A stretch of DNA of 64,000 nt from positions 202,977 to 266,976 of the forward strand of contig CBDBCU010000005.1 of the NCBI GenBank assembly GCA_965203435.1. The letters are read 5' to 3'. Positions 975 to 47,325 of the stretch are shown here, piece by piece; within the stretch, counting starts at the first letter, position 1, and every line of letters starts with the position of its first letter. Source of the DNA: Dehalococcoidia bacterium (GTDB lineage: Bacteria; Chloroflexota; Dehalococcoidia; Lucifugimonadales; UBA3495). The position numbers and the translations under genes are program-made. The notes below the pieces were generated by a model. That model searched no databases. It was not told where the DNA came from and worked only from the letters and a program-made list of their open reading frames with translations.

Positions 975-1217
975 CCCGCCTTGCTCATCCCTTCCTTTGC
1001 TGAAAATGCCCGGCCCTGAAATGCCCGGCCGCCGGGCTTGGGGTAGCCGGCGGATATGATAGCATATTGTTGTTGCGGCGTCATTTCCGGTTCGGCCGCC
1101 GGTTCCATCCTTCAACCCGTTCAGGATAAGCGGATGGGGCAGTTGCCCGCGGAAACTCTTGCCCTTTTCCGCGCCTTGCCCTACAATGGCCGGGCAAGGA
1201 GAGCAGGGAGCGGCGTT

Positions 1218-2069
1218 ATGGACGATTTTGCCCACCCGGAATATCTGATTTCCCCGGCGGAACTGCAAGCCGAATTGCACACCGGCTTGACCGCGCCGGA
1301 GCTGGTTATGGTGGATCTGGATTCCGCCGCCGGCTATCAGCGCGGCCATATCCCCGGCGCAGTGCCTCTGGCCGACAGCTACGAGCGAAATCCGGCTACC
1401 GGATGGGTTAATACCCTGCCGCCGGAAAAGTTCGCCGCCGTTTGCCAGGGCCTGGGTATCGGCGATAATACGGCGGTGGTGGCTTACGATAACAATATGA
1501 GCCTGTACGCCGCCCGTTTCTGGTGGACGCTGCGCTACTACGGCCACCGCAATATCCGGGTCTTAAACGGCGGTTGGCGGGCTTGGATTGCCGCCGGCGG
1601 GCCGGTCAGCTTTGCGCCGCCGCCAGCCGTTGCCGCATCCGAAGTCCGCTTTACGCCGCAGGTTGACCCGTCCCTTATTGTCGGCATTGACGCCGTCCGG
1701 GCCGGCTGCAACTTGGCGGACCCGGTGATTTGGGACACCCGCAGTGCCGGGGAGTATTCCGGGGTGGTGAACCGGGGCAATCGGCGGGCCGGCCATATCG
1801 CCGGCGCCATCCATTTGGATTGGCTGGATTTGATGGAACGGGATACGCACCGATTCAAGCCGGCGGCGGAAATCCAAACCATCCTCAACGAAAAAGGCAT
1901 CACCCCGGACAAGGCGGTATTCGCCTATTGACAGGCCGGCCTCCGTGCGGCGCACGGCGTCTTTCTGCTCAATCTGCTGGGCTATGCCAACGCCCGCAAC
2001 TATGATGCCTCGATGTTCGAGTGGGCCAACCGGGAGGACACGCCCATGGCTGCCGGGGGCAGATTCTAA
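1218..2069 (+). CDS. Two-domain rhodanese-type sulfurtransferase with in-frame TGA at the catalytic Cys position (candidate selenoprotein, U238)
   Basis: ATG at 1218 with a GGAG-type SD upstream. The tracked ORF ends ...KAVFAY-TGA (1929-1931). The same frame stays open to TAA 2067-2069 and reads QAGLRAAHGVFLLNLLGYANARNYDASMFEWANRED. The TGA therefore occupies the Cys of the CxxGxR active-site loop. Confidence 0.7.
1943..1957 (+). promoter_or_regulatory. Hairpin 11 nt downstream of the in-frame UGA (candidate minimal SECIS)
   Basis: CCGUGC-GGC-GCACGG. The identical 15-mer sits at the same offset in the paralogue (2906..2920). It also encodes the conserved RAAH, so its conservation is not independent evidence. 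Confidence 0.3.
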
Positions 2070-2171
2070 CATGGATTAACAGGATATACAGGATTTTGTT
2101 GTCTGCTAGGAACGGTTATTGACGGCCAGTACCGTTCTAATCAGATGCAAAAAAATCCTGTCTATCCATGT
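2068..2171. mobile_element. MITE-like element, family A (terminal inverted repeats AACATGGATAGACAGGAT / ATCCTGTCTATCCATGTT)
   Basis: Inverted termini flank a core of about 70 bp (..GAACGGTTATTGACGGCCAGTACCGTTC..). It sits between the two rhodanese genes. Related copies lie at 4475, 16101, 28746, 54089 and 54601, with half copies at 31021 and 43055. Confidence 0.7.
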
Positions 2172-2189
2172 AAATTAAGGGGGGAAACT

Positions 2190-3020
2190 ATGGTTATGGC
2201 TGAAGGCTTTGCCCACCCGGAGTTTCTGGTGGATGCCGCGTGGGTGGCGGCGCATCTGGACGATCCCCAGGTGGTGATAGTGGACGGGGATGTGGAGGCC
2301 GGCTACCTGCGCGGCCATATCCCCGGCGCGGCGCTGGTGCCGGACAACTACGAAAAGGATCCGGCTACCGGCCGGGTGCATATCCTGCCCCCGGAACCCT
2401 TTGCCGCCATGTGCCAGAACCTGGGCATCGGCGACGACACCCTGGTGGTGGCCTACGACAACAATCAGAGCCTTTACGCCGCCCGGCTGTGGTGGGCGCT
2501 GAATTACTACGACCACACCCAGGTCAAGGTGCTGGATGGCGGCTGGCGGCGCTGGGTGGCCGAGGGCCGCCCGATCAGTTTTGACCGCCCCACGCCCCGT
2601 AGTGGCGCAACTTTCACTCCGGCCATTGACCCGTCCCTTATGGTCCAGGCGGACGAACTGAAAGCGGCCTGCGCCTTGCCCGACGCCGTGCTGTGGGATG
2701 TGCGGAGCGACGGGGAATACCGCGGGGCCAACGACCGGGGCAATCGGCGGGCCGGCCATATTCCCGGAGCCGTCCACCTGGAGTGGCACAATGTGATGGA
2801 GCGGGACAGCCACCGTTTCAAGCCGGCGGCGGAAATCCGGCAGCTGCTGACCGACCACGGCATCACCCCGGACAAGGCGGTCTTTGCCTATTGACAGGGC
2901 GGCATCCGTGCGGCGCACGGCACCTTTCTGCTGAAAATGCTGGGCTATGCCCGGGCCAAAAACTACGATGCCTCCATGGGCGAATGGGCCAACCGGGAGG
3001 ATACGCCGCTGGAAATTTAG
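2190..3020 (+). CDS. Two-domain rhodanese-type sulfurtransferase, second tandem copy, same in-frame TGA at the catalytic Cys position
   Basis: ATG at 2190 after GGGGGG. The tracked ORF ends ...KAVFAY-TGA (2892-2894). The frame continues QGGIRAAHGTFLLKMLGYARAKNYDASMGEWANREDTPLEI to TAG 3018-3020. Confidence 0.7.
2906..2920 (+). promoter_or_regulatory. Hairpin 11 nt downstream of the in-frame UGA (candidate minimal SECIS)
   Basis: Same CCGUGC-GGC-GCACGG as at 1943..1957. Confidence 0.3.
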
Positions 3021-3049
3021 GGCGGCCAAATGCCAAGCCATCCCCGCAA

Positions 3050-3148
3050 CCGTCATTCCCGCGTAAGCGGGAATCCCGACGCTATTGCCTTATAATGCCG
3101 CAATCTTGGCAAGCCACCGCGGGATTCCCGCTTACGCGGGAATGACGG
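3050..3148. repeat. Interspersed repeat family B (about 100 bp; inverted ends CCGTCATTCCCGCGTAAGCGGGAATCCCG, each end itself a hairpin)
   Basis: The inverted pair flanks a variable core. The same architecture occurs at 19375, 25257, 26797, 26915, 30913, 43103, 47227 and 55690. It produces the FPLTRE / IPAYAGMTV pseudo-ORFs in the track. Confidence 0.8.
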
Positions 3149-3237
3149 TTGCGGCGGCGGGACATGACGGTAGGGTGATGGCGGGAATGACGGTAGCGGG
3201 ATGGCGGCAAAGCCGGCTGTCCGGGATAGGCCATTGG

Positions 3238-3281
3238 CAAAAGCCAAGCCCCCGGACAACCTATCCGGGGGCTGACTTTTT
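3238..3281. terminator. Bidirectional intrinsic terminator
   Basis: AGCCCCCGGA-CAACCTA-TCCGGGGGCT has TTTTT on the + side (3277-3281) and CTTGGCTTTT on the - side. It lies 34 nt downstream of the stop of the 3315..3908 gene. Confidence 0.6.
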
Positions 3282-3314
3282 GTCCGTTCCGGGGGTTATC
3301 CCGGCCGGCGGCGG

Positions 3315-3908
3315 CTAACCGCCGTTCAGGTGCAGTTGCGCCACCTGTTCCGGGGAAATGACATGGGACAGGATGAAGTGGGCCACATCCCGGCGCATCG
3401 GGTCTTCGAGATCGCAGTCCCGCAGATAGCCGAACTCCGGGTAGAACTCCTCCATCATTTTCTTGACCCGGGGCGGCCCGTGCCGGGAGGCCACCAGATA
3501 CTCCACGCTGCCCGGATCCCGCCCCATCTTGGCCTGTTCCCCCTCGGCAATGGCCAGTTCGGCCTCGTAGTCCACCCGATCCACCACGGCCAAGTGTTCC
3601 GTGGCGTCCTTGCGACAGCCCTCAATCTCCTTGAACAGGTTGTAGAGGGAGGAGACCATGGTGGAGATTTCCTCCAGCATCTGGGGGACGCGCTCCTGCT
3701 TGGCGATGGCGGCGTTCATCCGCCGCTGGGCTTCCTCCATGGCGTTCTTTTTGGCCCGATCCCAGGCGTGCTGCTGCTGGGCCTGGGCCAGTTCCTGCCG
3801 CAAGTGCGGAGCCTCCATCGCCAGGGAACCCAGCTCCCGCACCTTGCTCTCCGCTTCCTCCGCCTGCCGCAGGCGTTCCTGCAATTCCAAGTTCACACGG
3901 CTGACCAT
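3315..3908 (-). CDS. Hypothetical protein (coiled-coil N-terminal half)
   Basis: 197-aa ORF with a strong SD (GGAAGGAGACGGAAGTT-ATG) and a terminator downstream. I recognise no family. Confidence 0.7.
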   Translation of the reverse strand: MVSRVNLELQERLRQAEEAESKVRELGSLAMEAPHLRQELAQAQQQHAWDRAKKNAMEEAQRRMNAAIAKQERVPQMLEEISTMVSSLYNLFKEIEGCRKDATEHLAVVDRVDYEAELAIAEGEQAKMGRDPGSVEYLVASRHGPPRVKKMMEEFYPEFGYLRDCDLEDPMRRDVAHFILSHVISPEQVAQLHLNGG

Positions 3909-12809: not shown

Positions 12810-13076
12810 CCGTCCTTCCCGCGTACGCGGGAATCCCGCGCCGGCCTACCGTCATTCCCGCGTAAGCGGGAATCCCGCCGCCCCGCAACCATCAATCCCG
12901 CCGCCCTTTCTACCGTCATTCCCGCGTAAGCGGGAATCCCGCCGCCCCACAACCATCAATTCCGCCGCTCTTTCTACCGTCATTCTCGCGTAAGCGGGAA
13001 TCCCGCCGCTGCTGACGGATTCTGCGGTATCATAAGGCAATACCGTTCAGGATTCCCGCTTACGCGGGAAGGACGG
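12810..13076. repeat. Tandem array of family B repeat ends (four direct copies with a period of about 61 bp, plus one inverted copy)
   Basis: CTACCGTCATTCCCGCGTAAGCGGGAATCCCGCCGCC recurs. The intervening 25-bp segments are themselves similar to one another (CCGCAACCATCAATCCCGCCGCCCTTT vs CCACAACCATCAATTCCGCCGCTCTTT). Confidence 0.8.
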
Positions 13077-13228: not shown

Positions 13229-15985
13229 TCACCGTTCTACCAGCAATTCCGCCGCCCACACTTCCCCTTGCCCCGGAACATACTGGCCGGTGCGAATTGC
13301 CTTGATGGGATAGTCCGGCAAAGGAATGGCGGCCAAGCATTTGCCATCGAAAAGGCCGCCGCGGCGGGCAAAGGCAAAGTCTAAATTGGCAAAGCCGGCG
13401 GCTTGCCGTTCTGCCGGCAAATCAGCCACATCCTCCGGGATAATGTGCAGGAAAAAGGCGGCCGCCGTATCCGCCGCGGCGCAGGTTTCCCGCAAGTAAA
13501 GCAGCCGGTCGTCTTGCCGGTACAGGTCAAAGACTGCCCGGGCCGCCGGGGGACGATCGGACAAAGCGGCGTAGGCCGCCCGCAGGATGCCGGGGTCGGC
13601 CGGCGGGTAGAGGTTGACCGCCCACCTCCCATCCTGCCCGGTGTGGATTTCCGCAAGGGGATAGTCGGGCAGGGGTACTATTGCCACGCACTCCCCACTG
13701 GGCCGTCCGCCATAATCCGACAGTCTGAAATCCCGGCTTTCGTAACCGCCGCCGCCTTGATAATCCGCCGGCAAATCGAACAACCTTTCCGGGTAGAGCC
13801 GCAGGGTTAGGCCGGTCGCATATTCAGCATCGGAGCAATCCCTTTTGGCGTAGAGCAGGCGGGGGCGGCCGGCAGTACCCCGGTCGAGGAAAACCTCAAA
13901 GGAATCCGGGCCGGCCGGCGGATTTTGCCGCCGATATTCAGCAATCAATTCCCCCAAGCCGGGCCGGGACAGGCTGTAAAGTTCCTCCCATAAAGGCAGA
14001 CCTACCGGCCCGAAGTTGCCCAAGTTGCGCTGACTCAGGATAAGATTGCCCGACACATAATCCGGCAGTTGGATAACCGCCAGGCAAAGCTCCCCCAAGC
14101 GTACCCGGTGATTGCTGAAAAGGTCATCGGCCCGGGAGCCGCGGAAAGGCAGCTGCCGGCTTTCCGCCGGCCGGGGCAGAACCTTGACGCCAAACCACCT
14201 ATCCCTTTCCGCCGCCGGGCAGTTTTCCCGTACAAAGGTCAGCCGTTGGCCGTAGCGATAAACCTTGTAATCAGCGCGGATAATGGGTTCGTTGGCAAGG
14301 GCATCGCGGTACAATTCCCGATAGGCGGCTTGGGCGGCGGCGGTCATCCGGGCGGCGTCCAGCGGCCGCAGGGCTATCAAGGTATTGTTATAAAAGCGGC
14401 GGGGATACGCCGAATTAAAAGCCACATCCGGGCGGCTGGAATCCAACTGATAAATCAGTTCATAATCGGCGTTGCGGCCGCCGTCGGCGGTAAGCAACCG
14501 CCGCCGCGCTTCCGGCGGCAGAACTTCCAATTGCCACCGCTGGGCTACCCGCGCGGTCAAGGTTTCCTCGGGATGAAGTTCGGTCAGATATTCCAATCCC
14601 TCCCGATGCGCCACGCTTACCGTGTCAATAAAATACTGCGTCCGCAGCTGTTCCGGGGTCGTCCGATCCGCCAGAAAGTTGAAATATACCTGCTGAAAGG
14701 GATGAATTTGCGCCATCGAGAGCAGTATCAATCCCAATCCCAAGCCGGCCAGCCCGTACACCCCGGCCAGCCCGATGCGCCGCCGGGCCAGGGCGGTCGT
14801 CATCCAATGCAGCCCCCCGGCCGCCAGCAGGCAAAAGGGCGCATAGATAAAATACAACTGCCGCCAGCCGATAGTCTGATTGGGGTTCAGCAGGGCGGCC
14901 GCCAGCAGCGGCAGCAGAAAGCAAGCCAGCAACACCAGTTGCAAGCGCAGCTTGGTATTGCAGAAAGCCGCTCCGGGCCGGCGGCAAATCCCGGCCGCGG
15001 CCGCCGCCATTCCTATAAAGCCCAGCAGCAATATCAACGGCGGCGTGGTGATGCCGAACCAGACCGCATTGTAATGCGGCGGCAGTTCATCGGACGGAAT
15101 CAATTCCCCCTGGAACAGCTGCGGCCAGACGGTGGGATGATTGACCGTCAAGTTAAGGCTGGTCGCTATATAGTCCACCGGGTTGGCCCAAGCGTAGGGC
15201 GCCAGAGCATACACCGTCAGCCCGCCGGTCAACAAGAACAGCCCGGCTGTTAATAGGATTCTTTTCCGTTGCGGCCCAGCTCCGGCATAAAACCAGTCCA
15301 TCCCGCGCAGGGCGATAACGGCGGGAAAGAGCATTATCCCCATAATCCGCAGGTTGGTCAGCAATCCCACCGCCACGCCCAGCAGGACAAAAGCCGCGAT
15401 AGTATCCTTGCGGAAAGCCCGTTCCAGCAGGTAAAGGGCAATCATCAACATACTGAGCAAGGGCAGGTCTTTGCTGTTGAGGTAGGAATTGACATAGATG
15501 CGGGGGTGCAGCAGGAAAAGCAGCAGGGTCAAAAGGGCAATCCCGCGGCTGCCGGTAAGCCGATAAGCCAGCCGCCAGCAAAAGAAAGCCCCAACGATAA
15601 AGAACAGGTGGGTAAGGGTTAAGCGGAGGCGGTGGGCATAGTAATAATCCTCCAATCCCAGCGCCTGCTCGGTCAACAGCAACGGCAGCTCAAAGGCAAT
15701 GCCGTAAAAGCGGTCGGAAGGTACAATCTGCCGGTCGTCCCCGGCGGTCTTGAGCCGGAAGTCGTCATAATCGGCGCGGCCCAATATATAGTCCAGGTTG
15801 GCCCGGGCGATTTGACGCTGGATCTGTTCATCGATGCCGCTGCCATAATCCCCAGCCAGGATAATGCCGGCCAGCAGAAAGAGGGCGCAGATAAGCAGGC
15901 CGCCGCGGTCGGCCAGGAAGTTCAACGCCGCCGCCCGGCCCCCGCCGGCCCAGGGCGGGGCTATATGACGCAGCGGCGGCAGCAT
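13229..15985 (-). CDS. GT-C fold (GT39/ArnT/PMT-like) membrane glycosyltransferase with three C-terminal Cys-pair repeat modules, paralogue 1
   Basis: Start set to MLPPLRH (15985) by alignment with the paralogue N-termini. First-loop acidic motif is GDYGSGIDE. Conserved block is LTHLFFIVGAFFCWRLAYRL...LLHPRIYVNSYLNSKDLP. The C-terminal half has three modules of the form ..(R/K)(E/D)xC..F(L)HI.P..DLP..DF.F..G.C.A..PLPDYP...I.TGQ. Confidence 0.85.
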   Translation of the reverse strand: MLPPLRHIAPPWAGGGRAAALNFLADRGGLLICALFLLAGIILAGDYGSGIDEQIQRQIARANLDYILGRADYDDFRLKTAGDDRQIVPSDRFYGIAFELPLLLTEQALGLEDYYYAHRLRLTLTHLFFIVGAFFCWRLAYRLTGSRGIALLTLLLFLLHPRIYVNSYLNSKDLPLLSMLMIALYLLERAFRKDTIAAFVLLGVAVGLLTNLRIMGIMLFPAVIALRGMDWFYAGAGPQRKRILLTAGLFLLTGGLTVYALAPYAWANPVDYIATSLNLTVNHPTVWPQLFQGELIPSDELPPHYNAVWFGITTPPLILLLGFIGMAAAAAGICRRPGAAFCNTKLRLQLVLLACFLLPLLAAALLNPNQTIGWRQLYFIYAPFCLLAAGGLHWMTTALARRRIGLAGVYGLAGLGLGLILLSMAQIHPFQQVYFNFLADRTTPEQLRTQYFIDTVSVAHREGLEYLTELHPEETLTARVAQRWQLEVLPPEARRRLLTADGGRNADYELIYQLDSSRPDVAFNSAYPRRFYNNTLIALRPLDAARMTAAAQAAYRELYRDALANEPIIRADYKVYRYGQRLTFVRENCPAAERDRWFGVKVLPRPAESRQLPFRGSRADDLFSNHRVRLGELCLAVIQLPDYVSGNLILSQRNLGNFGPVGLPLWEELYSLSRPGLGELIAEYRRQNPPAGPDSFEVFLDRGTAGRPRLLYAKRDCSDAEYATGLTLRLYPERLFDLPADYQGGGGYESRDFRLSDYGGRPSGECVAIVPLPDYPLAEIHTGQDGRWAVNLYPPADPGILRAAYAALSDRPPAARAVFDLYRQDDRLLYLRETCAAADTAAAFFLHIIPEDVADLPAERQAAGFANLDFAFARRGGLFDGKCLAAIPLPDYPIKAIRTGQYVPGQGEVWAAELLVER

Positions 15986-15992
15986 AGGCCGG

Positions 15993-16001
15993 ATTATAGC
16001 A
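15993..16001 (-). promoter_or_regulatory. Extended -10 (TGCTATAAT) 7 nt upstream of the ATG: leaderless-type promoter
   Basis: Minus strand reads TATGCTATAATCCGGCCT-ATG. The same arrangement precedes all four paralogues. Confidence 0.55.
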
Positions 16002-16100
16002 TAAGGGGATGGCGGTTCGGTTGCGGCCGCTTCATCCTTCAACCAGTTCAGGATGAGCGGAAACCCCGCCGTCACCCTTTTACCGTCCTTCCCAAGCCGC

Positions 16101-16228
16101 GGGGACGGATTCAAACATGGATAGACAGGATTCTCATATCTGATTAGAACGGTACTGGTCGTCAACCACCGTTCTACAGCTACCCAAAATCCTGTCTATC
16201 CTGTCTATCCATGTTTGAATCCGTCCCC
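16101..16228. mobile_element. MITE-like element, family A (long version of the inverted termini)
   Basis: GGGGACGGATTCAAACATGGATAGACAGGA ... TCCTGTCTATCCATGTTTGAATCCGTCCCC, between GT-C paralogues 1 and 2. Confidence 0.75.
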
Positions 16229-16237
16229 CCGCCCGCC

Positions 16238-19200
16238 TCAGGGGGACACCGGCAAAGTCACCACCCACAACTCCCCCTGGCCGGGGATGTGCTGGCCGGT
16301 GCGGATCGCTTTGACCGGGTAGTCGGGCAGGGGGACTGACGCCAGACACTTGCCGTCGATATGGCCGCCCCAATGGTCAAAGGCAAAATCCCGGTTGGCA
16401 AAGCCGGCGGCTTGCCGTGCCGGGGGCAAATCGGCGGTATTTTCCGGGATGATATGCAGGATAAAGCCGGCCGCCGTATCCGCCGCCGCGCAGGATTCCC
16501 GCAAATAAATCAGCCGGTTGTGGCGCAGATACAAGTCATAGACCGCCCGGGCCGCCGGCTCCCGCTTGGCTAAAGACTGATATACCGCCGCCAAGCGGCC
16601 CGGGTCGGCCGGCGGGTACAAGTCCGCAGCCCATACTCCGGCCTGCCCGGTGCGGATTGATGCGATGGGATAGCCGGGCAGAGGAACTGCCGCCAGACAC
16701 TTGCCGTCAAAAGAGCCGCCCCAACGCTCAAAAACAAAATCCCGGTTGTCAAAGCCGACCGGCCGCCGTTCCTCCGGCAATACGGCGGCATCCTCCGGGA
16801 CTATGTGCAGGAAAAAGCCGGCCGCCGTGTCCGCCGCCGCGCAGGATTCCCGCAAATAAATCAGCCGATTATCCCGCAGATACAGGGCAAAGGCGGCTTG
16901 AGCCGACGGTTGACTTGCGGACACGGCGGCATAGACCCCTTGCAAGACGCCGGGGGCGGCCGGCGGATACAAGTTGACTTCCCAACCCTCCTCTTGCCCG
17001 GTGCGGATGGCGGCTACGGGATAATCGGGCATCGGGACGGCCGCCAGACATTCCCCATCCAACCGGCTGCCATAACGCGCCAGAGAAAAATCCCGGTTGT
17101 CCTGGCCGCTTTTCCAGAGGTAGAAAGGCAAATCCGCCGGATTTTCCGGGTAGATATGCAGGAATACCGGGGTTTCGTATGCGGCGGTAGAACAGTCGCC
17201 TTTGGCGTAAAGCAGGCGCTGGCGGCCCGCCGCCCGGTCAAGGAAAACGGCAAAAGCCTCCGGCGCGGCCGGATCCGGCCGCCCTTGCGCGCTCAGTTCC
17301 CACAGGCCGGGTTGCGACAGGCTGTAAAACTTTTCCCACACCGGATCCCCCTCCGGCTCGTATTGGCCCAGGTTGCGCCGGGACAGGATGATGTCGCCGC
17401 CGGCCGCCGCCGGCAGTTGGATAACCGCCAGGCAAAGCTCCCCCAGCTGTACCCGGTGATTGCTGAAAGATGCCGCGGGGCCGGGCTGCCACCAATCCGG
17501 CGGCGCGGTTTCCGGGGCCGGCGGAAAGGGCCGGACGCCAAACCAGGCCTCGGGAGCCGCCGGGGGGCAGTTTTCCTTGACCAAAACCAGCCGATGGCCC
17601 TGACGATAAACATTATAATCGGCGCGGATAATGGGTGCATCGGCTAGGGCTTGCTGATATATTTCCCGGTAGGCGGCTAGGGCGGCGGCGGTCATCCGGG
17701 CGGCGTCCATGGGCCGCAAGGCGACCAGGGGATTGGCATAGCGGCGGATATAACGGGCATTAAAGGCCAAGTCGGGCCGGCTGCGGTCGTTCCCTTGCTC
17801 CACCAATTCATAATCGGCGCGGCGGTCGGGGCCGGCAATAAGCAAATCCCGCCGGGCCGCCGCCGGCAGAATTTCCCAATGCCGCGCATAGTCCATCCGC
17901 ACCGCCAGCGTCTCCCCGGGATGCAATTCCCGCAGATATTCCAACGCATCCCGGTGCGCCAGCTGCCAGTAATCCAAATCATACTGCGCCCCCAGCGCCC
18001 CCGGCGTAGTCCGATCGGTCAGAAAGTTGAAATAAACCGGCTGCAAAGGATGCAGTTGTATCAGCTGCAACAGCAGCAATACCAAGCCGGCCGCCGCCAG
18101 CCCGTACATCCCCACCCGCCAACGCCGCCGCCGGGATAGAGCGGCCGCCAGCCAACCGCCGCCCAGGGCCGCCAGCAGGCAGAAAGGCGCATAGAGGAAA
18201 TAGAAATGCCGCCAACCGTCGTACTGATTGGCATCCAGCAGGATGGCCGCCAGCGGCGGCAGCAGGAAAGCGGCCAACAGCAGTAGCAGAAAGCGCATCC
18301 GGCCGTTGCGGAAAACCGCCCCGGGCCGGCGGATACCCTCTACCGCTACCGCCGCCATCCCGACCAGTCCCAGCAGCAGAAACAGCGGCGGCGTGGTGAT
18401 AGCAAACCAGGTGGCGGCGTAATGCGGCGGCAGCTCGTCGGAAAACAGCCATTCCCCCTGGAATAGCTGCGGCCAGATAGTCGGATGATTGACCGTCAAG
18501 GCAAAGTTAGCGGTCAGATAGTCAATAGGATTAGTCCAGGCGTAGGGCGACAGGGCGTACACCGTCAGTCCGGCGGTCAAGGTGAACAGCCCGGCGGTCC
18601 GTAGGATTCCTTTCCGTTCTTGCCAAGTCCCGGCGTAAAACCAATCCAATCCCCGCATTGCCAAGACCGCCGGCAGCAGCATTAGCCCCATAATCCGCAG
18701 GTTGGTCAGCGCTCCCACCCCTATCCCCAGCAGCAGGAAAGCGCCAATCGTATCCCGGCGGAAAGCCCGTTCCAGCAGGTAGAGGGCTATTGCGAACAGG
18801 GTGAGAAAAGGCAGGTCTTTGGAATTGACGAAAGAATGGCCGTAGATGCGGGGATGCAGCAGGAAAAGCAGCAGGGCTAACAGGGCAATCCACCGATTGT
18901 TGAACAGCCGCCAAGCCAGCCGGTAGCAACAGAAAGCCCCGACGATAAAGAACAGGTGGGTCAGCGTTAGGCGCAGCCGGTGGACATAATGGTAATCCTC
19001 GATCCCCAAGACGCGCTCGGCCAATAGCAGCGGCAGCTCCAAGGCCATGCCATAAACCCGGTCGTGGTAATGGTAGATATTCCGATCCAGGCGGTCGGCT
19101 TGCCCCCGGATATAGTCCAGATTGACCGCGGCCGTTTGCCGCTGATTCGGCTCATCGGGGCCGATGCCGTAATCCCCGGCCGTGGCCAAGCCGACCAGCA

Positions 19201-19306
19201 GAAAAAGGGCGCAAAGCAGCAGGCCGCTGCGGGCGGCAAAAAAGTTCAGCGCCGCTTGTCTCCGGCCGGCCCGTGGCAGGGATATGGAAAGCGGCGGCAG
19301 GAACAT
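16238..19306 (-). CDS. GT-C fold membrane glycosyltransferase with four C-terminal Cys-pair repeat modules, paralogue 2
   Basis: Start at MFLPPLSISLPRAG (19306). The architecture matches paralogue 1. One extra copy of the LIYLRESCAAADTAAGF(F/I)LHI.PE module accounts for the greater length. Confidence 0.85.
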   Translation of the reverse strand: MFLPPLSISLPRAGRRQAALNFFAARSGLLLCALFLLVGLATAGDYGIGPDEPNQRQTAAVNLDYIRGQADRLDRNIYHYHDRVYGMALELPLLLAERVLGIEDYHYVHRLRLTLTHLFFIVGAFCCYRLAWRLFNNRWIALLALLLFLLHPRIYGHSFVNSKDLPFLTLFAIALYLLERAFRRDTIGAFLLLGIGVGALTNLRIMGLMLLPAVLAMRGLDWFYAGTWQERKGILRTAGLFTLTAGLTVYALSPYAWTNPIDYLTANFALTVNHPTIWPQLFQGEWLFSDELPPHYAATWFAITTPPLFLLLGLVGMAAVAVEGIRRPGAVFRNGRMRFLLLLLAAFLLPPLAAILLDANQYDGWRHFYFLYAPFCLLAALGGGWLAAALSRRRRWRVGMYGLAAAGLVLLLLQLIQLHPLQPVYFNFLTDRTTPGALGAQYDLDYWQLAHRDALEYLRELHPGETLAVRMDYARHWEILPAAARRDLLIAGPDRRADYELVEQGNDRSRPDLAFNARYIRRYANPLVALRPMDAARMTAAALAAYREIYQQALADAPIIRADYNVYRQGHRLVLVKENCPPAAPEAWFGVRPFPPAPETAPPDWWQPGPAASFSNHRVQLGELCLAVIQLPAAAGGDIILSRRNLGQYEPEGDPVWEKFYSLSQPGLWELSAQGRPDPAAPEAFAVFLDRAAGRQRLLYAKGDCSTAAYETPVFLHIYPENPADLPFYLWKSGQDNRDFSLARYGSRLDGECLAAVPMPDYPVAAIRTGQEEGWEVNLYPPAAPGVLQGVYAAVSASQPSAQAAFALYLRDNRLIYLRESCAAADTAAGFFLHIVPEDAAVLPEERRPVGFDNRDFVFERWGGSFDGKCLAAVPLPGYPIASIRTGQAGVWAADLYPPADPGRLAAVYQSLAKREPAARAVYDLYLRHNRLIYLRESCAAADTAAGFILHIIPENTADLPPARQAAGFANRDFAFDHWGGHIDGKCLASVPLPDYPVKAIRTGQHIPGQGELWVVTLPVSP

Positions 19307-19313
19307 AAGCCGG

Positions 19314-19322
19314 ATTATAGCA
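19314..19322 (-). promoter_or_regulatory. Extended -10 (TGCTATAAT) 7 nt upstream of the ATG: leaderless-type promoter
   Basis: Minus strand reads TATGCTATAATCCGGCTT-ATG. Confidence 0.55.
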
Positions 19323-19374
19323 TACCCTCTTACCGTCCTTCCCGCGCCTTTCCAATGTATTCCCGCGGCCCCCA

Positions 19375-19474
19375 CCGTCATTCCCGCGTAAGCGGGAATC
19401 CCGAAATGCCTTGCCGCAAGCCGGCTTGTCTGACGCAGTACCGTCCTGGATTCCCGCTTACGCGGGAATGACGG
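19375..19474. repeat. Interspersed repeat family B
   Basis: CCGTCATTCCCGCGTAAGCGGGAATCCCG ... GGATTCCCGCTTACGCGGGAATGACGG, between paralogues 2 and 3. Confidence 0.8.
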
Positions 19475-19535
19475 TAGGGGGAGTACGGTAAAGGCATCGG
19501 GAAGGACAGGGTTTTAATGCCTTTGCCTGCCCGCC

Positions 19536-22277
19536 TCAGTGCCCAACCCTCAACTCCGCCGCCCACACCTCGCCTCGGCCCGGAACATATTGCCCCGTCC
19601 GCAGGGCGGCGATGGGATAGTTGGGCAAGGGAATAGCGGCCAGGCATTTGCCCTCAAAATGCCCGCCCCGGCGGTCAAAGGCAAAATCCATATTGGCAAA
19701 GCCGGCATCCCGCCGCTCCGGCGGCAAATCGGCGACATCCGCCGGGAGGATATGCAGGAAAAAGCCGGCCGCCGTATCCGCCGCCGCGCAGGATTCCCGC
19801 AAATAAATCAATCGGTTATCCTGAATATACAGGTCAAAATCAGCCCGGATCTGAGGTTGCCGGTCGGACAAGGCGGCGTACGTGGCCCGCAAACGCTCCG
19901 GGGCGGCCGGCGGATATAAATTGAATTCCCACAATCCGGCCGCGCCGGTATGCAGGGCAGCGATGGGATATTCGGGCAGGGGAACTAGCGCCAGACAGCC
20001 CCCGCCGGGCTGGATGCCGTAACGCGCCATCGGAAAATCCCGGTTCTCCTGCCCCCCGGCCCAGCGGTAAAAGGGCAGGTCGGCCCGGTTCTCCGGGTAG
20101 ATATGCAGGAAAATCCGGCGGGCAAAATCGGCGGGGGAACATTCCTCTTTGTCATAAAGCAGGCCCGGCCGGCCGGCATCGTCCCGGCCCAGGAAAACGG
20201 CAAAAGCGTCCGGATCGGCCGGCGGCGGCCGCCGCCGCCCCTGGTCGAGCCATTCCCCCAAGCCAGGGCGGGTGATGCTGTAGAGTTCATCCAGCCATAC
20301 CGGTTTTTCCCCCGGCCCGGGCGGGCCGGAGCCGCGCTGACTCAGGATTAGCTCGCCCTGAGTGGCGGCCGGCAGTTGGATAACCGCCAGGCAGACCGCG
20401 CCCAGCCGCACCGGTTGGCGGTGGTAGGAGGTATGGAAGCCGGGTTCCCATAAACCGGTCGGCAGAATTTCCTGGCGGGGCGGGAAAACCTTGACGGTGA
20501 ACCAGACCTCGTCCCGTTCCGGGCGGCAATCCTCCCGCACAAAAGCGATCCGGCCATCCTTAAAATAAACATCATAATTGCCGCGGATAATGGGTTCTCC
20601 GGTTAGGGCTTGCCGGTAAATTTCTTGATAGGCGGCCCGGGCCGCCGCCGTCATCCGGTCGCTGTCCCGCGGCTGCAGGACGGCCAGGGTGTTGTTATAA
20701 AAGCGGCGCGGATAGGCCGAATTAAAGGTCAAATCCGGCCGGCTGGGCTCCGGCTGATGGGTCAGGTAATAATCGGCGCTACGGCCGCCGGCTAGCGGCA
20801 ATCGCCGCCGCGCCGCCGGCGGCAGCGCGCCCCACAGCTCCCGATACTCCGTCCGCACCGCCATGGTTTCGCCGGGGTAGCGCGCCAGCAGATATTGCAA
20901 CGCCGGCCCTTGCGCCGACTGCCAGTAGTCCATTTCATACTGCGCCCGCAGCCCTTCCGGGGTCGTCCGATCCACCAGAAAGTTGAAATAAATATGCTGC
21001 AAGGGATGGAGCTGAGCCATCTGGAGCAGAAGCAACCCGAAACCCAATCCGGCCAGGCCATACATCCCGACCCGGAATCGCCGCCGTTGCCGGGCCAGGG
21101 CGGCGGTCAGCCCGCCCATACCTCCGGCCGCCAGCAGGCAAAAGGGGGCGTAGCTGAAATAAAGATGCCGCCAATCGTCGTACTGATTGGATCCCAACAG
21201 GGCGGCGGCCAGGGCCGGCAGCAGGGCAGCCGCCAGCAGCAGCCCGGCAAAGCGCAGCCGGCCGTTGCGGAAAGCGGCCCCGGGCCGGCGGCCAACCCGC
21301 GCCACGACCACCGCCGCGCCGATGCCGCCCAGCAAGGGAATCAAGGGCGGCGCCGTAATCAGAAACCAGGTCGGCAAGTAATGAAAGGGCAATTGATCCG
21401 AGGGAATCCGCTGCCCCTGGAACAGCACCGACACCACGGTGGGATGATTGACCGTCAAGTCCAGACTGCCGGCCAGATAATCTACCGGGTCAGGCCAGGC
21501 ATAGGGGGTTACCGCATACCAGGTCAGCCCGGCCGCCAAGAGGAATATCCCGCCGGTCCGCCATATCCCTTTTCGTTCCGGCCCGCTAGTCGCATAAAAC
21601 AAATCCAATCCCCGCATCGCCAGCGCCGCCGCCAACAGCATTACCCCCATAATCCGCAGGTTGGTCAGCAATCCCACGGCTATTCCCAGCAGGACAAAAG
21701 CCCCGACCGTGTCCCGGCGGAAAGCCCGTTCCAGCAGATAGAGGGCTAGCACAAGCATACTGAGAAAGGGCAGGTCTTTGCTGTTGATAAAGGAATGGGC
21801 GTAGATGCGGGGGTGCAGCAGGAAAAGCAGCAGAGCCAGGATAGCCAGCGGCCGATTGCGGAACAGGCGGTAAGCCAGGCGGTAAAAAAAGAAAGCGCCG
21901 ACAATAAAGAACAGGTGGGTCAGGGTTAAGCGGAGCCGGTTGACATAGTGCAAATCCTCCCAGCCCAACGCCCGCTCCGCCAGCAGCAGCGGCAGCTCAA
22001 AGGCTATGCCATAAAACCGGTCGGAGGATACCAGAGCATCCCGGCCGTTAAAGACCAGGATGCCGTCGGCCCGGCCCAAGATATAATTTACATTGGCCTC
22101 AGCAATCAGGCGCTGGGTTGCCTGGTCGGCGCCAATGCCATAATCCCCGACCAGGGCCAAGCCGGCCAGCAGAAAAAGGCCGCAAATCAGCAGGCCGCTG
22201 TGGGCGGCCAAGAAGTTCAGCGCCGCCCGGCCCCGGCCGGCCCGTGGCAGGGATATGGAAAGCGGCGGCGGGAACAT
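19536..22277 (-). CDS. GT-C fold membrane glycosyltransferase with three C-terminal Cys-pair repeat modules, paralogue 3
   Basis: 913-aa ORF starting MFPPPLSISLPRAG, with the same conserved blocks as paralogues 1 and 2. Confidence 0.85.
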   Translation of the reverse strand: MFPPPLSISLPRAGRGRAALNFLAAHSGLLICGLFLLAGLALVGDYGIGADQATQRLIAEANVNYILGRADGILVFNGRDALVSSDRFYGIAFELPLLLAERALGWEDLHYVNRLRLTLTHLFFIVGAFFFYRLAYRLFRNRPLAILALLLFLLHPRIYAHSFINSKDLPFLSMLVLALYLLERAFRRDTVGAFVLLGIAVGLLTNLRIMGVMLLAAALAMRGLDLFYATSGPERKGIWRTGGIFLLAAGLTWYAVTPYAWPDPVDYLAGSLDLTVNHPTVVSVLFQGQRIPSDQLPFHYLPTWFLITAPPLIPLLGGIGAAVVVARVGRRPGAAFRNGRLRFAGLLLAAALLPALAAALLGSNQYDDWRHLYFSYAPFCLLAAGGMGGLTAALARQRRRFRVGMYGLAGLGFGLLLLQMAQLHPLQHIYFNFLVDRTTPEGLRAQYEMDYWQSAQGPALQYLLARYPGETMAVRTEYRELWGALPPAARRRLPLAGGRSADYYLTHQPEPSRPDLTFNSAYPRRFYNNTLAVLQPRDSDRMTAAARAAYQEIYRQALTGEPIIRGNYDVYFKDGRIAFVREDCRPERDEVWFTVKVFPPRQEILPTGLWEPGFHTSYHRQPVRLGAVCLAVIQLPAATQGELILSQRGSGPPGPGEKPVWLDELYSITRPGLGEWLDQGRRRPPPADPDAFAVFLGRDDAGRPGLLYDKEECSPADFARRIFLHIYPENRADLPFYRWAGGQENRDFPMARYGIQPGGGCLALVPLPEYPIAALHTGAAGLWEFNLYPPAAPERLRATYAALSDRQPQIRADFDLYIQDNRLIYLRESCAAADTAAGFFLHILPADVADLPPERRDAGFANMDFAFDRRGGHFEGKCLAAIPLPNYPIAALRTGQYVPGRGEVWAAELRVGH

Positions 22278-22284
22278 AGGGCGG

Positions 22285-22293
22285 ATTATAGCA
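22285..22293 (-). promoter_or_regulatory. Extended -10 (TGCTATAAT) 7 nt upstream of the ATG: leaderless-type promoter
   Basis: Minus strand reads TATGCTATAATCCGCCCT-ATG. Confidence 0.55.
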
Positions 22294-22300
22294 TAAGGGG

Positions 22301-22476
22301 GCGGGCGGATCTTTTCCGCTCATCCTGAACTTGTTGAAGGATGAGCGGAAAAGATCCGCCCGCTTATCCTTAACCGGCAAGGATGTTACCACTATCCGCC
22401 CATCCTGAGCCGGTTGCAGGATTGGCAGTGATTTTCCGCTCATCCTGAACTTGTTGAAGGACGAGCGGAAAATCAC
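22301..22476. repeat. Interspersed repeat family D (core CCGCTCATCC-TGAACTTGTTGAA-GGATGAGCGG), two copies embedded in long palindromes
   Basis: 22301..22325 pairs perfectly with 22339..22363 (25-bp stem, 13-nt loop). 22428..22445 pairs with 22459..22476 (18 bp, one mismatch). A degenerate copy lies between them. Confidence 0.8.
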
Positions 22477-22484
22477 TTCCAACC

Positions 22485-25205
22485 CTACCTTTCCACCCTC
22501 AACTCCGCCGCCCACACCTCGCCCTGGCCCGGAACATATTGCCCCGTCCGCAGGGCGGCGATGGGATAGTCCGGCAAGGGAACGATGGCCAGACATTTGC
22601 CGTCAAAAGCGCCGCCATAGCGGGCAAAGGGAAAGTCCAAGTTGGCAAAGCCGGCCGGCCGCCGTTCCTGCGGCAAATCGGCAATATCCTGCGGGAGGAT
22701 ATGCAGGAAAAAATCGGCCGCCGTATCCGCCGCCGCGCAGGTTTCCCGCAGGTAAATCAGCCGATTATCCTGGAGATACAGGGCAAAATCCGACAGGGCG
22801 GCCGGGATATGGTCGGACAGGGCGGCGTAAGTGGCCCGCAAATCATCCGGGTTGGCCGGCGGGTATAGAGTGGCCGCCCACATCCCGGCTTGGCCGGTGC
22901 GGATTTCGGCGATGGGATAGGTCGGCAGGGGGATGGCGGCGATACAATCCCCGCCGGGCCGGCCGCCATAAACATCCAACAGAAAATCCCGATTGTCAAA
23001 GCTGTTGCCCCGGTTGTAGGCCGGCAAATCCGCCAAATCCGCCGGGGTGATATGCAGGGTTACGCGGGTTTCGTATTCGGATTGAGTGCAACCCGCTTTG
23101 GCATAAAGCAGGCGCGGCCGGCCGGCGGCATCCCGGTCGAGGAAAACCGCAAAGGCATCCGGATTTGGCGGCGGCTGTTGCTGCCGCAACCGGGCCATCC
23201 GTTTCCCCAAGCTAGGGCCGGCCAAGGTATAAAGTTCCTCCCACAAGGGCCAATCCGCCGGCCCGAAGTTGCCCAAATTGCGCCGGGTAATAATCAAATC
23301 GCCCGCAATATCCGGCGGCAGTTGGATAACCGCCAGGCAAACCTCGCCCAGTCGTACCCGGTGATTGTAGTAAGGGGCATAAAACACCGCTTGCCGGGAA
23401 TAGGGCGGCAAGGATTTCGCCGCCGCCGGGAAGGGCTTGACGCCGAACCACTCATCCCGGCCGCCCGGCGGACAGTTTTCCCGAACAAAAGTCAGCCGGT
23501 TATCCGCCAGATAAACCTTATAATCGGCGCGGATAATGGGTTCGCCGGCTACGGCATCACGGTAAATTTCCCGATAGGCGGCGATAGCGGCCGGCGTCAT
23601 CCGGGCGGCGTCCAGCGGCCGCAGGGCTATGATGGTATTGCTGTAAAGGCGGCGGCGGTAAGCCGTATTAAAGGCCAAATCCGGCTGGAAAGATTCCAGC
23701 GGATAAATCAGTTCATAATCGGCGCTGCGGCCGCCGGTGGCTGGCAGCAGCCGCTCCCGGGCCGCCGCCGGCAAAATGCCCAGATGCCGCTGCCCGACCC
23801 GCACCGTCAAGGTTTCCTGGGGATGCCTTTGCCGCAGATATTCCAATCCCGCCCGGTGCGCCAGCTGCATATAGTCCAGGTCATACTGCGTCCGCAGCCG
23901 CTCCGGCGTCGTCCGCTCGGCCAGAAAGTTGAAATAGACCGGCGGCAAGGGATGAATTTGCGCCATTTGCAGTACCACCAGCCCCAAGCCCACGCCGGCC
24001 AATCCATACATCCCGGCGGCTCGCCGCCAGCCTTGCCGGTACAGAGCGGCCGTCAGACCACCCATGCCCGCCGCCGCCAGCAGGCAAAAGGGGGCATAAA
24101 TGAAAAACAAATGCCGCCAGCCCTCGGATTGATTGGAACCCAGCACGGTAGCCGCCAGCGGCGGCAGCAGAAAGCAAGCCGCCAGCAACAGCAGCAAGCG
24201 CATCTTGGTGTTGCGGAAAACCGTCCCGGGCCGGCGGATTCCCCGGGCCGCTACCAGCGCCATCCCGATAAATCCCAGCAGCAAAATCAGCGGCGGCGTG
24301 GTAATGCCAAACCAGGTGGCGGTGTAATGCGGCGGCAGTGCGTTGGACAGCAGTAATTCCCCCTGAAACAACTGCGGCAACACCGCCGGATGATTGACCG
24401 TCTGGCCCAGGCTGGTGACCAGGTAGTCCACCGGATTAGCCCAGGCATAGGGCGTTGCCGCGTACAAAGTCAGACCGGCGGCCAAGGCGAACAGGCCGGC
24501 GGTCCACAGGATTCGCTTTCGTTCCGGCCAATGCCCGGCATAAAAGCAATCCAATCCCCGCATTGCCAACGGCGCCGCCACCAGCATTAGCCCCATAATC
24601 CGCAGGTTGGTCAGCACGCCCACCGCTGCGCCCAGCAGCAGGAAAGCCCCGAGGGTGTCTTTGCGGAAAGCCCGTTCCAGCAGGTAGAGGGCAATCAGGA
24701 ACATACTGAGAAAGGGCAAGTCTTTGAAGTTGACGAAAGAATGGCCGTATATGCGGGGATGCAACAGCAGGAACAGCAGGGCCAGGATTGCCAGCGGCCG
24801 ACTGCCGAACAGCCGATAAGCCAGCCGATAGCCAAAGTAAGCGCCGACAATAAAGAACAGGTGGGTCAGGGTTAAGCGCAGGCGGTGGATTTGGGAATAA
24901 TCCTCCAATCCCAGGAGCCGCTCCGCCAGCAGCAGGGGCAGCTCAAAAGCCACGCTATAGACCCGATCCTGATACAGGTCGGTGGCAATGCGGTCGGAAT
25001 GGCCCCGGATGTAGTCCAGATTGGCCCGGGCAATCCGCCGCTGCGGCCATTCATCGTAGTTAATGCCATAATCCCCGGCCGCAGCCAGTCCCACCAGCAG
25101 AAAGAGGATACAGACCAGCAGGCCACAGCGGGCGGTCAAAAAGTTCAGCGCCGCCGGACTGCGGCCGGAAAGTTGCCGGAATATGCGGCGCAGCGGCGGG
25201 AACAT
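22485..25205 (-). CDS. GT-C fold membrane glycosyltransferase with three C-terminal Cys-pair repeat modules, paralogue 4
   Basis: 906-aa ORF starting MFPPLRRIF, with the same conserved blocks. Confidence 0.85.
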   Translation of the reverse strand: MFPPLRRIFRQLSGRSPAALNFLTARCGLLVCILFLLVGLAAAGDYGINYDEWPQRRIARANLDYIRGHSDRIATDLYQDRVYSVAFELPLLLAERLLGLEDYSQIHRLRLTLTHLFFIVGAYFGYRLAYRLFGSRPLAILALLFLLLHPRIYGHSFVNFKDLPFLSMFLIALYLLERAFRKDTLGAFLLLGAAVGVLTNLRIMGLMLVAAPLAMRGLDCFYAGHWPERKRILWTAGLFALAAGLTLYAATPYAWANPVDYLVTSLGQTVNHPAVLPQLFQGELLLSNALPPHYTATWFGITTPPLILLLGFIGMALVAARGIRRPGTVFRNTKMRLLLLLAACFLLPPLAATVLGSNQSEGWRHLFFIYAPFCLLAAAGMGGLTAALYRQGWRRAAGMYGLAGVGLGLVVLQMAQIHPLPPVYFNFLAERTTPERLRTQYDLDYMQLAHRAGLEYLRQRHPQETLTVRVGQRHLGILPAAARERLLPATGGRSADYELIYPLESFQPDLAFNTAYRRRLYSNTIIALRPLDAARMTPAAIAAYREIYRDAVAGEPIIRADYKVYLADNRLTFVRENCPPGGRDEWFGVKPFPAAAKSLPPYSRQAVFYAPYYNHRVRLGEVCLAVIQLPPDIAGDLIITRRNLGNFGPADWPLWEELYTLAGPSLGKRMARLRQQQPPPNPDAFAVFLDRDAAGRPRLLYAKAGCTQSEYETRVTLHITPADLADLPAYNRGNSFDNRDFLLDVYGGRPGGDCIAAIPLPTYPIAEIRTGQAGMWAATLYPPANPDDLRATYAALSDHIPAALSDFALYLQDNRLIYLRETCAAADTAADFFLHILPQDIADLPQERRPAGFANLDFPFARYGGAFDGKCLAIVPLPDYPIAALRTGQYVPGQGEVWAAELRVER

Positions 25206-25256: not shown

Positions 25257-25356
25257 CCGTCATTCCCGCGTAAGCGGGAATCCCGAACGGTACTGCCTTA
25301 TAATGCCGCATCCCCGGCAAGTCACCGCGGGATTCCCGCTTACGCGGGAATGACGG
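25257..25356. repeat. Interspersed repeat family B
   Basis: Inverted CCGTCATTCCCGCGTAAGCGGGAATCCCG ends. The core (..TGCCTTATAATGCCGCA..) resembles the copy at 3050. Confidence 0.8.
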
Positions 25357-41098: not shown

Positions 41099-41656
41099 AT
41101 GCTGGGACGAAAAGGGCGGCGATTTCTGCGGTCGCTGAAAGAGGGCGGGAAAGTTCTGCTGTCCAGCCTGATCGGCGTCCTGTCGCTGGCGGCGAACTTT
41201 TACTTGGTATGGATCCGGTGGGACTGGAGCGTCCAGTCCTACTATGACTTCTACAAGGAAGTCATCACCACTACGGCGGCCACGGCGGCCGTGCTGATTG
41301 CCATAGTCATCTACAGCCCGGAGGTGGTCAAGGTGTTTGGAGAAACCTTTCTGGCAAAACGGTTCGCGGCCGGCCGCGAGGAGGGCCTGGAGGAGGGGGT
41401 GGTCAAGGGTCGCGAGGAGGGTCGCGAGGAGGGTCGTGAGGAGGGCGTGGTCAAGGGGCGTGAGGAGGGTCGCGAGGAGGGTCGTGAGGAGGGCGTGGTC
41501 AAGGGGCGCGAGGAGGGGGTGGTCAAGGGCCGGGGAGAGCGGGACGCGGAGTTGCTAAAGCTCCTCGAGGAAAGCCCGGAAGTTACGCTCGACCATCTTA
41601 AGGACCTTCTGCGTAGTGGGGACGCGCCGAGCAACGGCAAGGAATCCGGGCAGTAG
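41099..41656 (+). CDS. Membrane protein with GREEG-type repeats
   Basis: Two predicted TM helices are followed by FLAKRFAAGREEGLEEGVVKGREEGREEGREEGVVK..., which derives from tandem 45-nt units, and an ..ELLKLLEESPEVTLDHLKDLL tail. The paralogue is at 50741..51286. Confidence 0.7.
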   Translation: MLGRKGRRFLRSLKEGGKVLLSSLIGVLSLAANFYLVWIRWDWSVQSYYDFYKEVITTTAATAAVLIAIVIYSPEVVKVFGETFLAKRFAAGREEGLEEGVVKGREEGREEGREEGVVKGREEGREEGREEGVVKGREEGVVKGRGERDAELLKLLEESPEVTLDHLKDLLRSGDAPSNGKESGQ

Positions 41657-43102: not shown

Positions 43103-43201
43103 CCGTCATTCCCGCTTACGCGGGAATCCCCACGGTCGCCTGTCGACAATACCATCCTAATGCAGTACGGTTCGGGATTCCCGCTTACGCGGGAATGACG
43201 G
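43103..43201. repeat. Interspersed repeat family B
   Basis: Near-identical inverted duplicate of 30913..31011. Confidence 0.8.
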
Positions 43202-45134: not shown

Positions 45135-45289
45135 AAGTTTTGACTCCTCCGGTTTGCGGTTGGGGCTTATTGTAGTATATTTCCGGCGCCTTTCTACCGT
45201 CCTTCCCGCTCAGGCGGGAATCCCGGAAGGCGTTGCCCTATGCCGCCGCGGGATTCCCGCTTACGCGGGCAGGACGTGTAGGAGGATGA

Positions 45290-47226: not shown

Positions 47227-47325
47227 CCGTCATTCCCGCGTAAGCGGGAATCCAGGAATCCTTGCCGGCAACCGGCGGGTCTTTTCCGGTACCGTTCGGG
47301 ATTCCCGCTTACGCGGGAATGACGG
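47227..47325. repeat. Interspersed repeat family B
   Basis: Inverted CCGTCATTCCCGCGTAAGCGGGAATCC ends. Confidence 0.8.

Follow-up and report, generated by a model that had tools for sequence, protein, structure and literature searches.

Here we describe a pair of tandem rhodanese genes within 64,000 nucleotides of contig CBDBCU010000005.1 from a Dehalococcoidia bacterium (this 64-kb stretch, analysed as a whole, is hereafter referred to as the window), in each of which an in-frame UGA occupies the codon of the catalytic cysteine. The two genes, rhodanese A (QAGL type) and rhodanese B (QGGI type), very probably encode full-length rhodaneses of the RhdA/TST type with a selenocysteine (Sec) nucleophile, which would be inserted through SelB and a selenocysteine insertion sequence (SECIS). 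This reading is carried by the structure of the genes, by a Sec/Cys correspondence with their homologues, and by selection both on the extension beyond the UGA and on an RNA hairpin within it.

Both genes have the same layout (Table 1). From its ATG, rhodanese A reads MDDFAHPEYL...ITPDKAVFAY up to the TGA, beyond which the frame remains open for 45 more codons and reads QAGLRAAHGVFLLNLLGYANARNYDASMFEWANREDTPMAAGGRF as far as its true stop. The ATG of rhodanese B lies 120 nt downstream of the end of gene A, and its TGA is followed by 41 codons, reading QGGIRAAHGTFLLKMLGYARAKNYDASMGEWANREDTPLEI; an example of the extension peptide within the full-length product is NYDASMGEWANR. The sequence PDKAVFAY-TGA, followed by Q(A/G)G(L/I)RAAHG, is common to both genes, and the two read-through products are 63% identical. 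The initial annotation of this DNA had both paralogues halting at KAVFAY-TGA, with the frame open for 45 and 41 codons beyond, and the coordinates bear this out. The read-through products that it proposed would be 283 and 276 amino acids long, not 284 and 277.

Each read-through product matches the rhodanese domain PF00581 twice (E = 1e-32 and 3e-33), giving two domains in a chain of about 280 residues, as in tandem-domain rhodaneses (PF00581 twice, COG2897). The best solved relatives, A. vinelandii RhdA (PDB 1e0c, E = 5e-40, residues 1–277) and the Thermus protein 1uar, align with the products from end to end. In the 1e0c alignment the TGA falls on the catalytic Cys230 of RhdA (HCQTHHRS), in keeping with the earlier proposal that it replaces exactly the catalytic cysteine. 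A nucleophile, here a predicted Sec, opens a six-residue loop in the C-terminal domain only, whereas the N-terminal domain has Asp in place of Cys (AYDNN, compared with VYDDE in RhdA). The combination of an inactive N-terminal domain (Asp for Cys) with a catalytic C-terminal domain is shared with RhdA, 1uar and the mycobacterial CysA/SseA proteins, and the six-residue C-Q-x-x-x-R loop is shared with RhdA. The difference from RhdA-type enzymes lies in the nucleophile, which is encoded here by UGA, and in the loop, which is UQGGIR or UQAGLR and not CQTHHR. Two more specific assignments were rejected. Scores against the 3-mercaptopyruvate sulfurtransferase model (NF008557/SseA) were 112.7 and 129.4 bits, below the cut-off of 250, and the loop is UQ[GA]G[IL]R and not CG[ST]GVT; the match to NF041203 (rhodanese_LYCAU) reached 27.9 bits against a cut-off of 115, covered only residues 90–129 of the N-terminal domain and included no CxU motif.

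An exhaustive HMMER search of 1.84 billion cluster representatives returned full-length Cys homologues of 274–292 residues at 40–50% identity. Their active sites (YCQAGVRASHG, YCQGGVRAAL, YCQGGIRAAY, HCQAGIRAS and YCQSGVRAAF) place a Cys opposite the UGA in the same loop, and the pattern [YH]CQ[AGS]G[VI]RA occurs at the UGA-aligned site of P0133, P0141, P0143, P0149, P0150, P0155 and P0158. The alignment with Cys-containing orthologues, which the initial annotation had suggested as a check, thus gives the expected residue. Because these homologues align Cys to UGA, the genes form Sec/Cys pairs with them, and such correspondence is the classical mark by which selenoproteins are recognized. Further homologues of 231–241 residues, at 35–53% identity, end one residue before the UGA position (P0121–P0127, P0131, P0134–P0136, P0147 and P0148). 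Judged from these shorter protein homologues by themselves, the Sec form probably reaches beyond the Dehalococcoidia/SAR202 clade.

The UGA is strictly conserved in close relatives. When the read-through product of rhodanese B was searched against 5.8 billion proteins, the 120 best matches (64–94% identity) were all cut at the same codon, with lengths of 232–237 residues except for two that are extended upstream only (256 and 382 residues). An exact database look-up of the 234-residue product of the window gave no entry, and the relatives P0006 and P0003 were used instead. A genome scan with one genome per GTDB species yielded 80 loci, which one ENA contig and the window bring to 82. In all 80 loci tblastn crosses the stop over query residues 1–276, at 58–88% identity; all belong to Dehalococcoidia, Chloroflexota or SAR202 metagenome-assembled genomes (MAGs), many of them from sponges or the deep ocean. 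Across the 82 loci (about 76 MAGs) the catalytic codon is TGA in 107 of 107 orthologous genes, and TGC, TGT, TAA or TAG in none. The UGA and the coding region downstream of it are therefore both kept in other organisms, as expected of a selenoprotein. The extension has 41 codons in 81 genes and 40–55 in the remainder, which are mainly of the A type. In 81 B-type genes, the pairwise Nei–Gojobori ratio of nonsynonymous to synonymous substitution rates (dN/dS) is ~0.12 for the extension (codons +10 to +41), compared with ~0.16 over the 50 codons that precede the UGA. Such a low ratio indicates that the extension is translated, under constraint comparable with that on the remaining protein. Relatives with a truncated gene in place of a Cys or Sec codon, named in the initial annotation as a sign against Sec, were not seen among these 107 genes.

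A 6-bp hairpin, CCGUGC-GGC-GCACGG, lies 11 nt after each UGA, exactly as the initial annotation had described it. Its energy is −8.0 kcal/mol, and 17 nt separate the UGA from its loop. The published bacterial SECIS (bSECIS) model asks for a loop of 3–9 nt, a stem of 4–16 bp, a G in the first two loop positions, a spacing of 16–37 nt between UGA and loop, and a minimum free energy (MFE) of −7.5 kcal/mol or lower (PMC13188914), and the hairpin agrees with it in every respect. Across 88 distinct sequences, the third codon positions within the hairpin are nearly invariant (C at +15 in 88, U at +18 in 85, G at +21 in 88, G at +24 in 88 and C at +27 in 87), whereas those flanking it have entropies of 0.9–1.7 bits. 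The proportion of synonymous differences (pS) is 0.19 in the SECIS codons (+1 to +9), compared with 0.62–0.64 in the flanks. The stem uses disfavoured codons, CGU making up 5% of the Arg codons of the window and CUC 7% of its Leu codons.

The consensus structure computed by RNAalifold consists of the 6-bp stem only. In four genes (L048, L075, L076 and L081), a G-C pair is replaced by U-A through compensatory changes on both sides of the stem, and RAAHG becomes RSANG or RSSNG (Ala to Ser, His to Asn); in these genes, as the alignments read, the protein sequence yields to preserve RNA pairing. In the RAANS variants (L037, L042, L043 and L045) the stem is broken, and an alternative hairpin of 8 bp, whose loop is GUG, lies a few nucleotides further downstream (−9.6 kcal/mol). 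Taken together, the comparisons among relatives indicate that the hairpin is under selection at the RNA level. Like the E. coli fdhF SECIS and the bSECISearch consensus, it is a stem-loop within the coding sequence after the UGA, with a small loop that starts with GG. The minimal fdhF element has an 11-nt gap before its upper stem, equal to the gap here. The hairpin has no similarity in sequence to the fdhF element, shows no evident bulged U and lacks a conserved lower stem. MFE folds of single sequences proposed a longer SECIS whose lower stem starts from the UGA; this form was dropped, as RNAalifold retains the 6-bp core only. As a separate observation, the codon before the UGA (1926–1928 and 2889–2891) always ends in U, here and in all relatives: it is UAU in every sequence with Tyr at this position (87 of 88 distinct sequences) and CAU or CUU otherwise, whereas elsewhere in the window UAU and UAC are about equally used. 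This pattern suggests that decoding of the UGA depends on which nucleotide stands at −1.

Rhodaneses of this kind are already known as predictions. A Sec 'rhodanese-related sulfurtransferase' of the COG2897 type was reported from the Sargasso Sea in 2005, with three sequences and a drawn SECIS (PMC1088965), and a Sec rhodanese was predicted again in 2008 using Global Ocean Sampling (GOS) data, with eight Sec sequences under cd01449 (PMC2398784). A 2026 review distinguishes five Sec rhodanese forms, all predicted only, among which the COG2897 type is 'form 4, UxxG' (PMC13188914). These listings agree with the statement in the initial annotation that Sec rhodanese-like proteins had been predicted from metagenomes but are not known to have been studied biochemically. 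Both of our genes fit the published family by description: they match PF00581, are of the COG2897 type and carry the UxxG motif as U-Q-G-G and U-Q-A-G, and they share with the family the two domains, a UGA for the catalytic Cys, a marine source and a SECIS just downstream. The assignment is made by family description, the reference members being AACY01016424 and MCY3690685.1. The published COG2897/cd01449 family consists of 3 and 8 metagenomic reads or contigs, whereas here there are 107 genes, tandem paralogues and selection on the SECIS. What is added here is a taxonomic home (SAR202-type Dehalococcoidia), strict conservation of TGA in those genes, a conserved paralogue pair, and quantitative support for selection acting on both the extension and the SECIS. 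Other Sec rhodaneses, namely the single-domain COG0607 forms 1–3 (including the CxU type of NF041203) and the rhodanese/DsbD fusion TsoB, share the fold and the Sec but differ in being single domains or fusions and in their Sec motifs.

In the mechanism we propose, the ribosome would meet the UGA inside the loop U-Q-(G/A)-G-(I/L)-R-A, and the hairpin would serve as a bacterial SECIS that recruits SelB-GTP-Sec-tRNASec. Sec would then be inserted, in competition with release factor 2 (RF2), at residue 238 of rhodanese A or 235 of rhodanese B, and translation would run on for 41–45 codons, completing the catalytic domain. If its chemistry resembles that of other rhodaneses, the enzyme would work by double displacement: the selenolate would take sulfane sulfur (or selenium) from thiosulfate or a persulfide donor, cycling between E-Se(−) and E-Se-S(−), and the atom would be handed to a thiophilic acceptor. 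Sec could be of benefit through its low pKa and strong nucleophilicity, or because it resists irreversible over-oxidation, and the enzymes may also take part in selenium trafficking. We infer SelB-dependent insertion in the source organism, and likewise the substrates and the chemical advantage of Sec.

One relative provides good, though indirect, evidence that links the tandem pair to the Sec-decoding machinery. Contig MPMM01000002.1 (L019), from the SAR202 cluster bacterium bin22 of the sponge Aplysina aerophoba, carries the same pair, with UGAs at 9753 and 10703, and bin22 is listed with two SelA, one SelB and one SelD (Supplementary Table S4, PMC5649159). The 2026 BSepDB paper counts two Dehalococcoidia MAGs as some of the most selenoprotein-rich bacteria, at 49 and 46 genes (PMC13326102), and Chloroflexi are reported to have tRNASec species of an unusual 8/4 structure (PMC5389517).

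Four other explanations were weighed, which together hold only a small share of the probability. SelB-independent read-through, by which a near-cognate tRNA (Cys, Trp or Arg) would decode a leaky UGA-C followed by a hairpin at low frequency, is very unlikely. UGA followed by C is a weak termination context in E. coli, C stands after the UGA in 88 of 88 distinct sequences, and downstream structures can stimulate read-through. However, an active enzyme would result only from Cys or Sec, the position, loop and stem of the hairpin match the SECIS model exactly, and a strictly kept TGA in a selenoprotein-rich lineage is what Sec insertion predicts.

It is less probable still that the UGA is decoded through the hairpin and SelB but read as Cys by a tRNASec-like tRNACys, so that an ordinary Cys rhodanese results. 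Opal-suppressor tRNAs of this type were described in deltaproteobacteria by Mukai and colleagues, a tRNASec of 8/4 structure is reported in Chloroflexi (PMC5389517), and sequence data alone cannot separate Sec from Cys at the UGA site. There is, however, no report of a tRNASec-like tRNACys for Dehalococcoidia, and insertion of Cys would be cheaper by UGC or UGU, yet neither codon is used by any of the 107 genes. SelA and SelD are moreover listed for bin22, and large selenoproteomes are on record for related MAGs.

True termination at the UGA, with functional proteins of 234–237 residues or with decaying pseudogenes, is just as improbable as decoding as Cys. It agrees with public annotation, for example the 234-residue 'sulfurtransferase' entries MYC29924.1 and MBM3943124.1, and some truncated product is expected anyway, with RF2 competing with SelB. 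Yet the 41 codons after the UGA hold their frame, their length and the low dN/dS given above, and the extension aligns with the remaining part of the catalytic domain in rhodaneses of known structure. An unconstrained stop would drift among TGA, TAA and TAG, like the true stops of the same genes (TAG 47, TAA 23 and TGA 22 in the 92 rhodanese genes first examined).

A genome-wide reassignment by which TGA would mean Trp or Gly, known from some bacteria with small genomes, has next to no probability left: nothing beyond the in-frame TGAs themselves speaks for it, an enzyme with Trp or Gly as its catalytic residue would be inactive, and the code is not reassigned, because TGA ends 8 of 41 probable genes of the window (several with full-length Pfam matches, and a HicB-like gene at 33770–34228 among them) as well as the 22 rhodanese genes just mentioned. 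The initial annotation had argued the same from genuine TGA stops elsewhere in the window. A scan of codon usage and coding potential on both strands found only these two TGAs in 64 kb with a coding signal on both sides, and no other selenoprotein gene in the window.

Several observations weigh against decoding of these UGAs as Sec. Folded alone, the 62-nt stretches (62% G+C) are no more stable than shuffled sequences (z = 0.8 and 0.0). The hairpin in these stretches, for which the initial annotation had proposed a SECIS prediction, fits the published bSECIS parameters; its significance comes from comparison with relatives and not from single-sequence stability. Rfam, run on the window and also in a permissive mode over 1100–3400, gave no matching SECIS family, the permissive run returning only spurious matches of miRNA models on long palindromes. 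The published record for the COG2897 Sec family consists of sequence-based predictions only. Neither the 64-kb window nor the 10-kb flanks of any of the 80 related loci yielded selA, selB, selD or tRNASec: the E. coli proteins SelA, SelB and SelD, used as tblastn queries, had no match in the window and 81 loci (~1.6 Mb), Pfam annotation of 40 window proteins showed no sel gene, ARAGORN and Rfam found no tRNA in the window, and ARAGORN found no tRNASec in the 81 related loci. The 8/4 structure may be the reason why standard tRNA finders miss such tRNAs. The link to the Sec machinery is the published COG table for one relative, bin22. Lastly, when open reading frames (ORFs) within 7 kb were clustered across the 82 loci, no conserved neighbour emerged other than the coiled-coil gene described below, and with it no hint of a substrate. 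Separately, ARAGORN made two over-long calls, L044 14869–14964 (a 96-nt 'Gln') and L070 15583–15670 (an 88-nt 'Glu'); the first is a false positive inside a formyltransferase-like coding sequence.

The order A then B is found in 25 of 82 loci, and A-type genes with TGA also occur in several unlinked loci. In tandem loci the two genes are separated by 17–135 nt or by ~0.7–1.1 kb, one further spacer being a start-calling artefact. In other MAGs the paralogues lie on separate contigs (L026 with L057, L037 with L058, and L045 with L059). Since the pair is kept, in tandem or unlinked, across MAGs, the duplication is old and both copies are still Sec forms. The initial annotation had called a duplicated pair unusual; it is instead a conserved feature of the clade.

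Table 1. Features of the tandem rhodanese locus (positions in the window)
Feature	Coordinates	Strand	Description
Rhodanese A (QAGL type)	1218..2069	+	Two-domain sulfurtransferase, 283 residues from ATG 1218; predicted Sec at residue 238; true stop TAA 2067–2069
Rhodanese B (QGGI type)	2190..3020	+	Two-domain sulfurtransferase, 276 residues from ATG 2190; predicted Sec at residue 235; true stop TAG 3018–3020
In-frame UGA of gene A	1929..1931	+	Predicted Sec codon; aligned with RhdA Cys230; TGA in all 107 orthologues
In-frame UGA of gene B	2892..2894	+	Predicted Sec codon; position of the catalytic Cys codon
SECIS core hairpin of gene A	1943..1957	+	CCGUGC-GGC-GCACGG; 6-bp stem, GGC loop; starts 11 nt after UGA
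SECIS core hairpin of gene B	2906..2920	+	CCGUGC-GGC-GCACGG; starts 11 nt after UGA
Palindromic intergenic repeat, A–B spacer	2076..2174	.	Arms 2082–2101 and 2148–2167, with an inner inverted repeat
Terminator-like hairpin, bidirectional	3247..3273	.	GC-rich with T runs; between gene B and a convergent 197-residue gene (3315–3908, minus)

The spacer between the two genes (2070–2189) folds at −41 kcal/mol, and the ribosome-binding site of gene B, AAGGGGGG, comes after its palindrome. The repeat element in this spacer reads ATGGATAGACAGGATTTT ... AAAATCCTGTCTATCCAT; a second copy lies at ~54090–54200, and related copies are present in the A–B spacers of L002 and L006. As the spacers of relatives are otherwise unrelated, the element resembles a mobile insert or one of the repetitive extragenic palindromic (REP) type rather than a conserved regulator. 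Downstream of gene B, the convergent gene encodes a coiled-coil protein without a Pfam match, which is kept in 23 close relatives.

A second family of intergenic repeats, REP-like or resembling miniature inverted-repeat transposable elements (MITEs), has the core GTCATTCCCGCGTAAGCGGGAATC, with 27 matches in the window where none is expected by chance. They lie at 62–85, 3044–3154, 12812–13074, 19377–19472, 25259–25354, 26799–27009, 30915–31009, 43105–43199, 45199–45275, 47229–47323 and 55692–55787. Most are convergent pairs about 70 nt apart, which form long perfect palindromes and account for the spurious miRNA matches in Rfam; one such pair, with 35-nt arms at 3044–3078 and 3120–3154, stands just downstream of rhodanese B.

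Pfam annotation shows ordinary chromosomal content across the window, with genes for an ion channel, a DNA methylase, glycosyltransferases, four PMT_2 paralogues, a luciferase-like monooxygenase, a molybdopterin oxidoreductase, GcvT, Obg, NadD, CtaA, CtaB, an ABC transporter, CobS, SecDF and the CCA-adding enzyme. The four paralogues are large and consecutive (13229–25205, minus; 978, 1047, 913 and 906 residues), each with a PMT_2 domain (dolichyl-phosphate-mannose-type glycosyltransferase), and are adjoined by Wzy-like, flippase-like and GT4 genes; this arrangement suggests a large cluster for glycosylation of the cell envelope. Two adjacent genes (44607–45134 and 45290–45847, minus) encode PaREP1/PaREP8 proteins (PF05942), an archaeal family that is unusual in a bacterial chromosome. 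Paralogous proteins of about 180 residues are encoded at 41099–41656 and 50741–51286 (plus), with a short Yae1_N motif as their sole Pfam match, and an IS240/IS6-type DDE transposase gene lies at 52674–53552 (minus).

Sec could be read as obligatory in these enzymes of this lineage, and not interchangeable with Cys, because two paralogues have long been kept and none of the 107 genes has reverted to Cys, although we consider this unlikely. If it held, the enzymes would carry out chemistry that a thiol cannot do. One possibility would then be an Se-Se(−) or Se-S(−) carrier that supplies selenophosphate synthetase for a very large selenoproteome; an alternative would be the turnover of persulfides or polysulfides under oxic conditions, where over-oxidation would inactivate a Cys rhodanese.

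All close public homologues that we examined are deposited as 234-residue fragments that lack the active site, those with any name being called 'sulfurtransferase', and no curated NCBIfam model covers the two-domain Sec rhodanese. The family is thus mis-annotated throughout SAR202/Dehalococcoidia genomes, whose sulfur metabolism and selenium demand are both under-counted. The Sec/Cys pairs provide natural controls for what selenium adds to sulfane-sulfur transfer. The SECIS overlaps the codons just after the active-site loop, so that pairing freezes synonymous sites and forces rare codons, and the paired amino-acid changes in one clade (RAAHG to RSSNG) offer a clear case of RNA structure constraining protein sequence. 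With Sec as the very probable nucleophile of both rhodaneses, the genes lend further support to a heavy dependence of sponge-associated and marine Dehalococcoidia on selenium.

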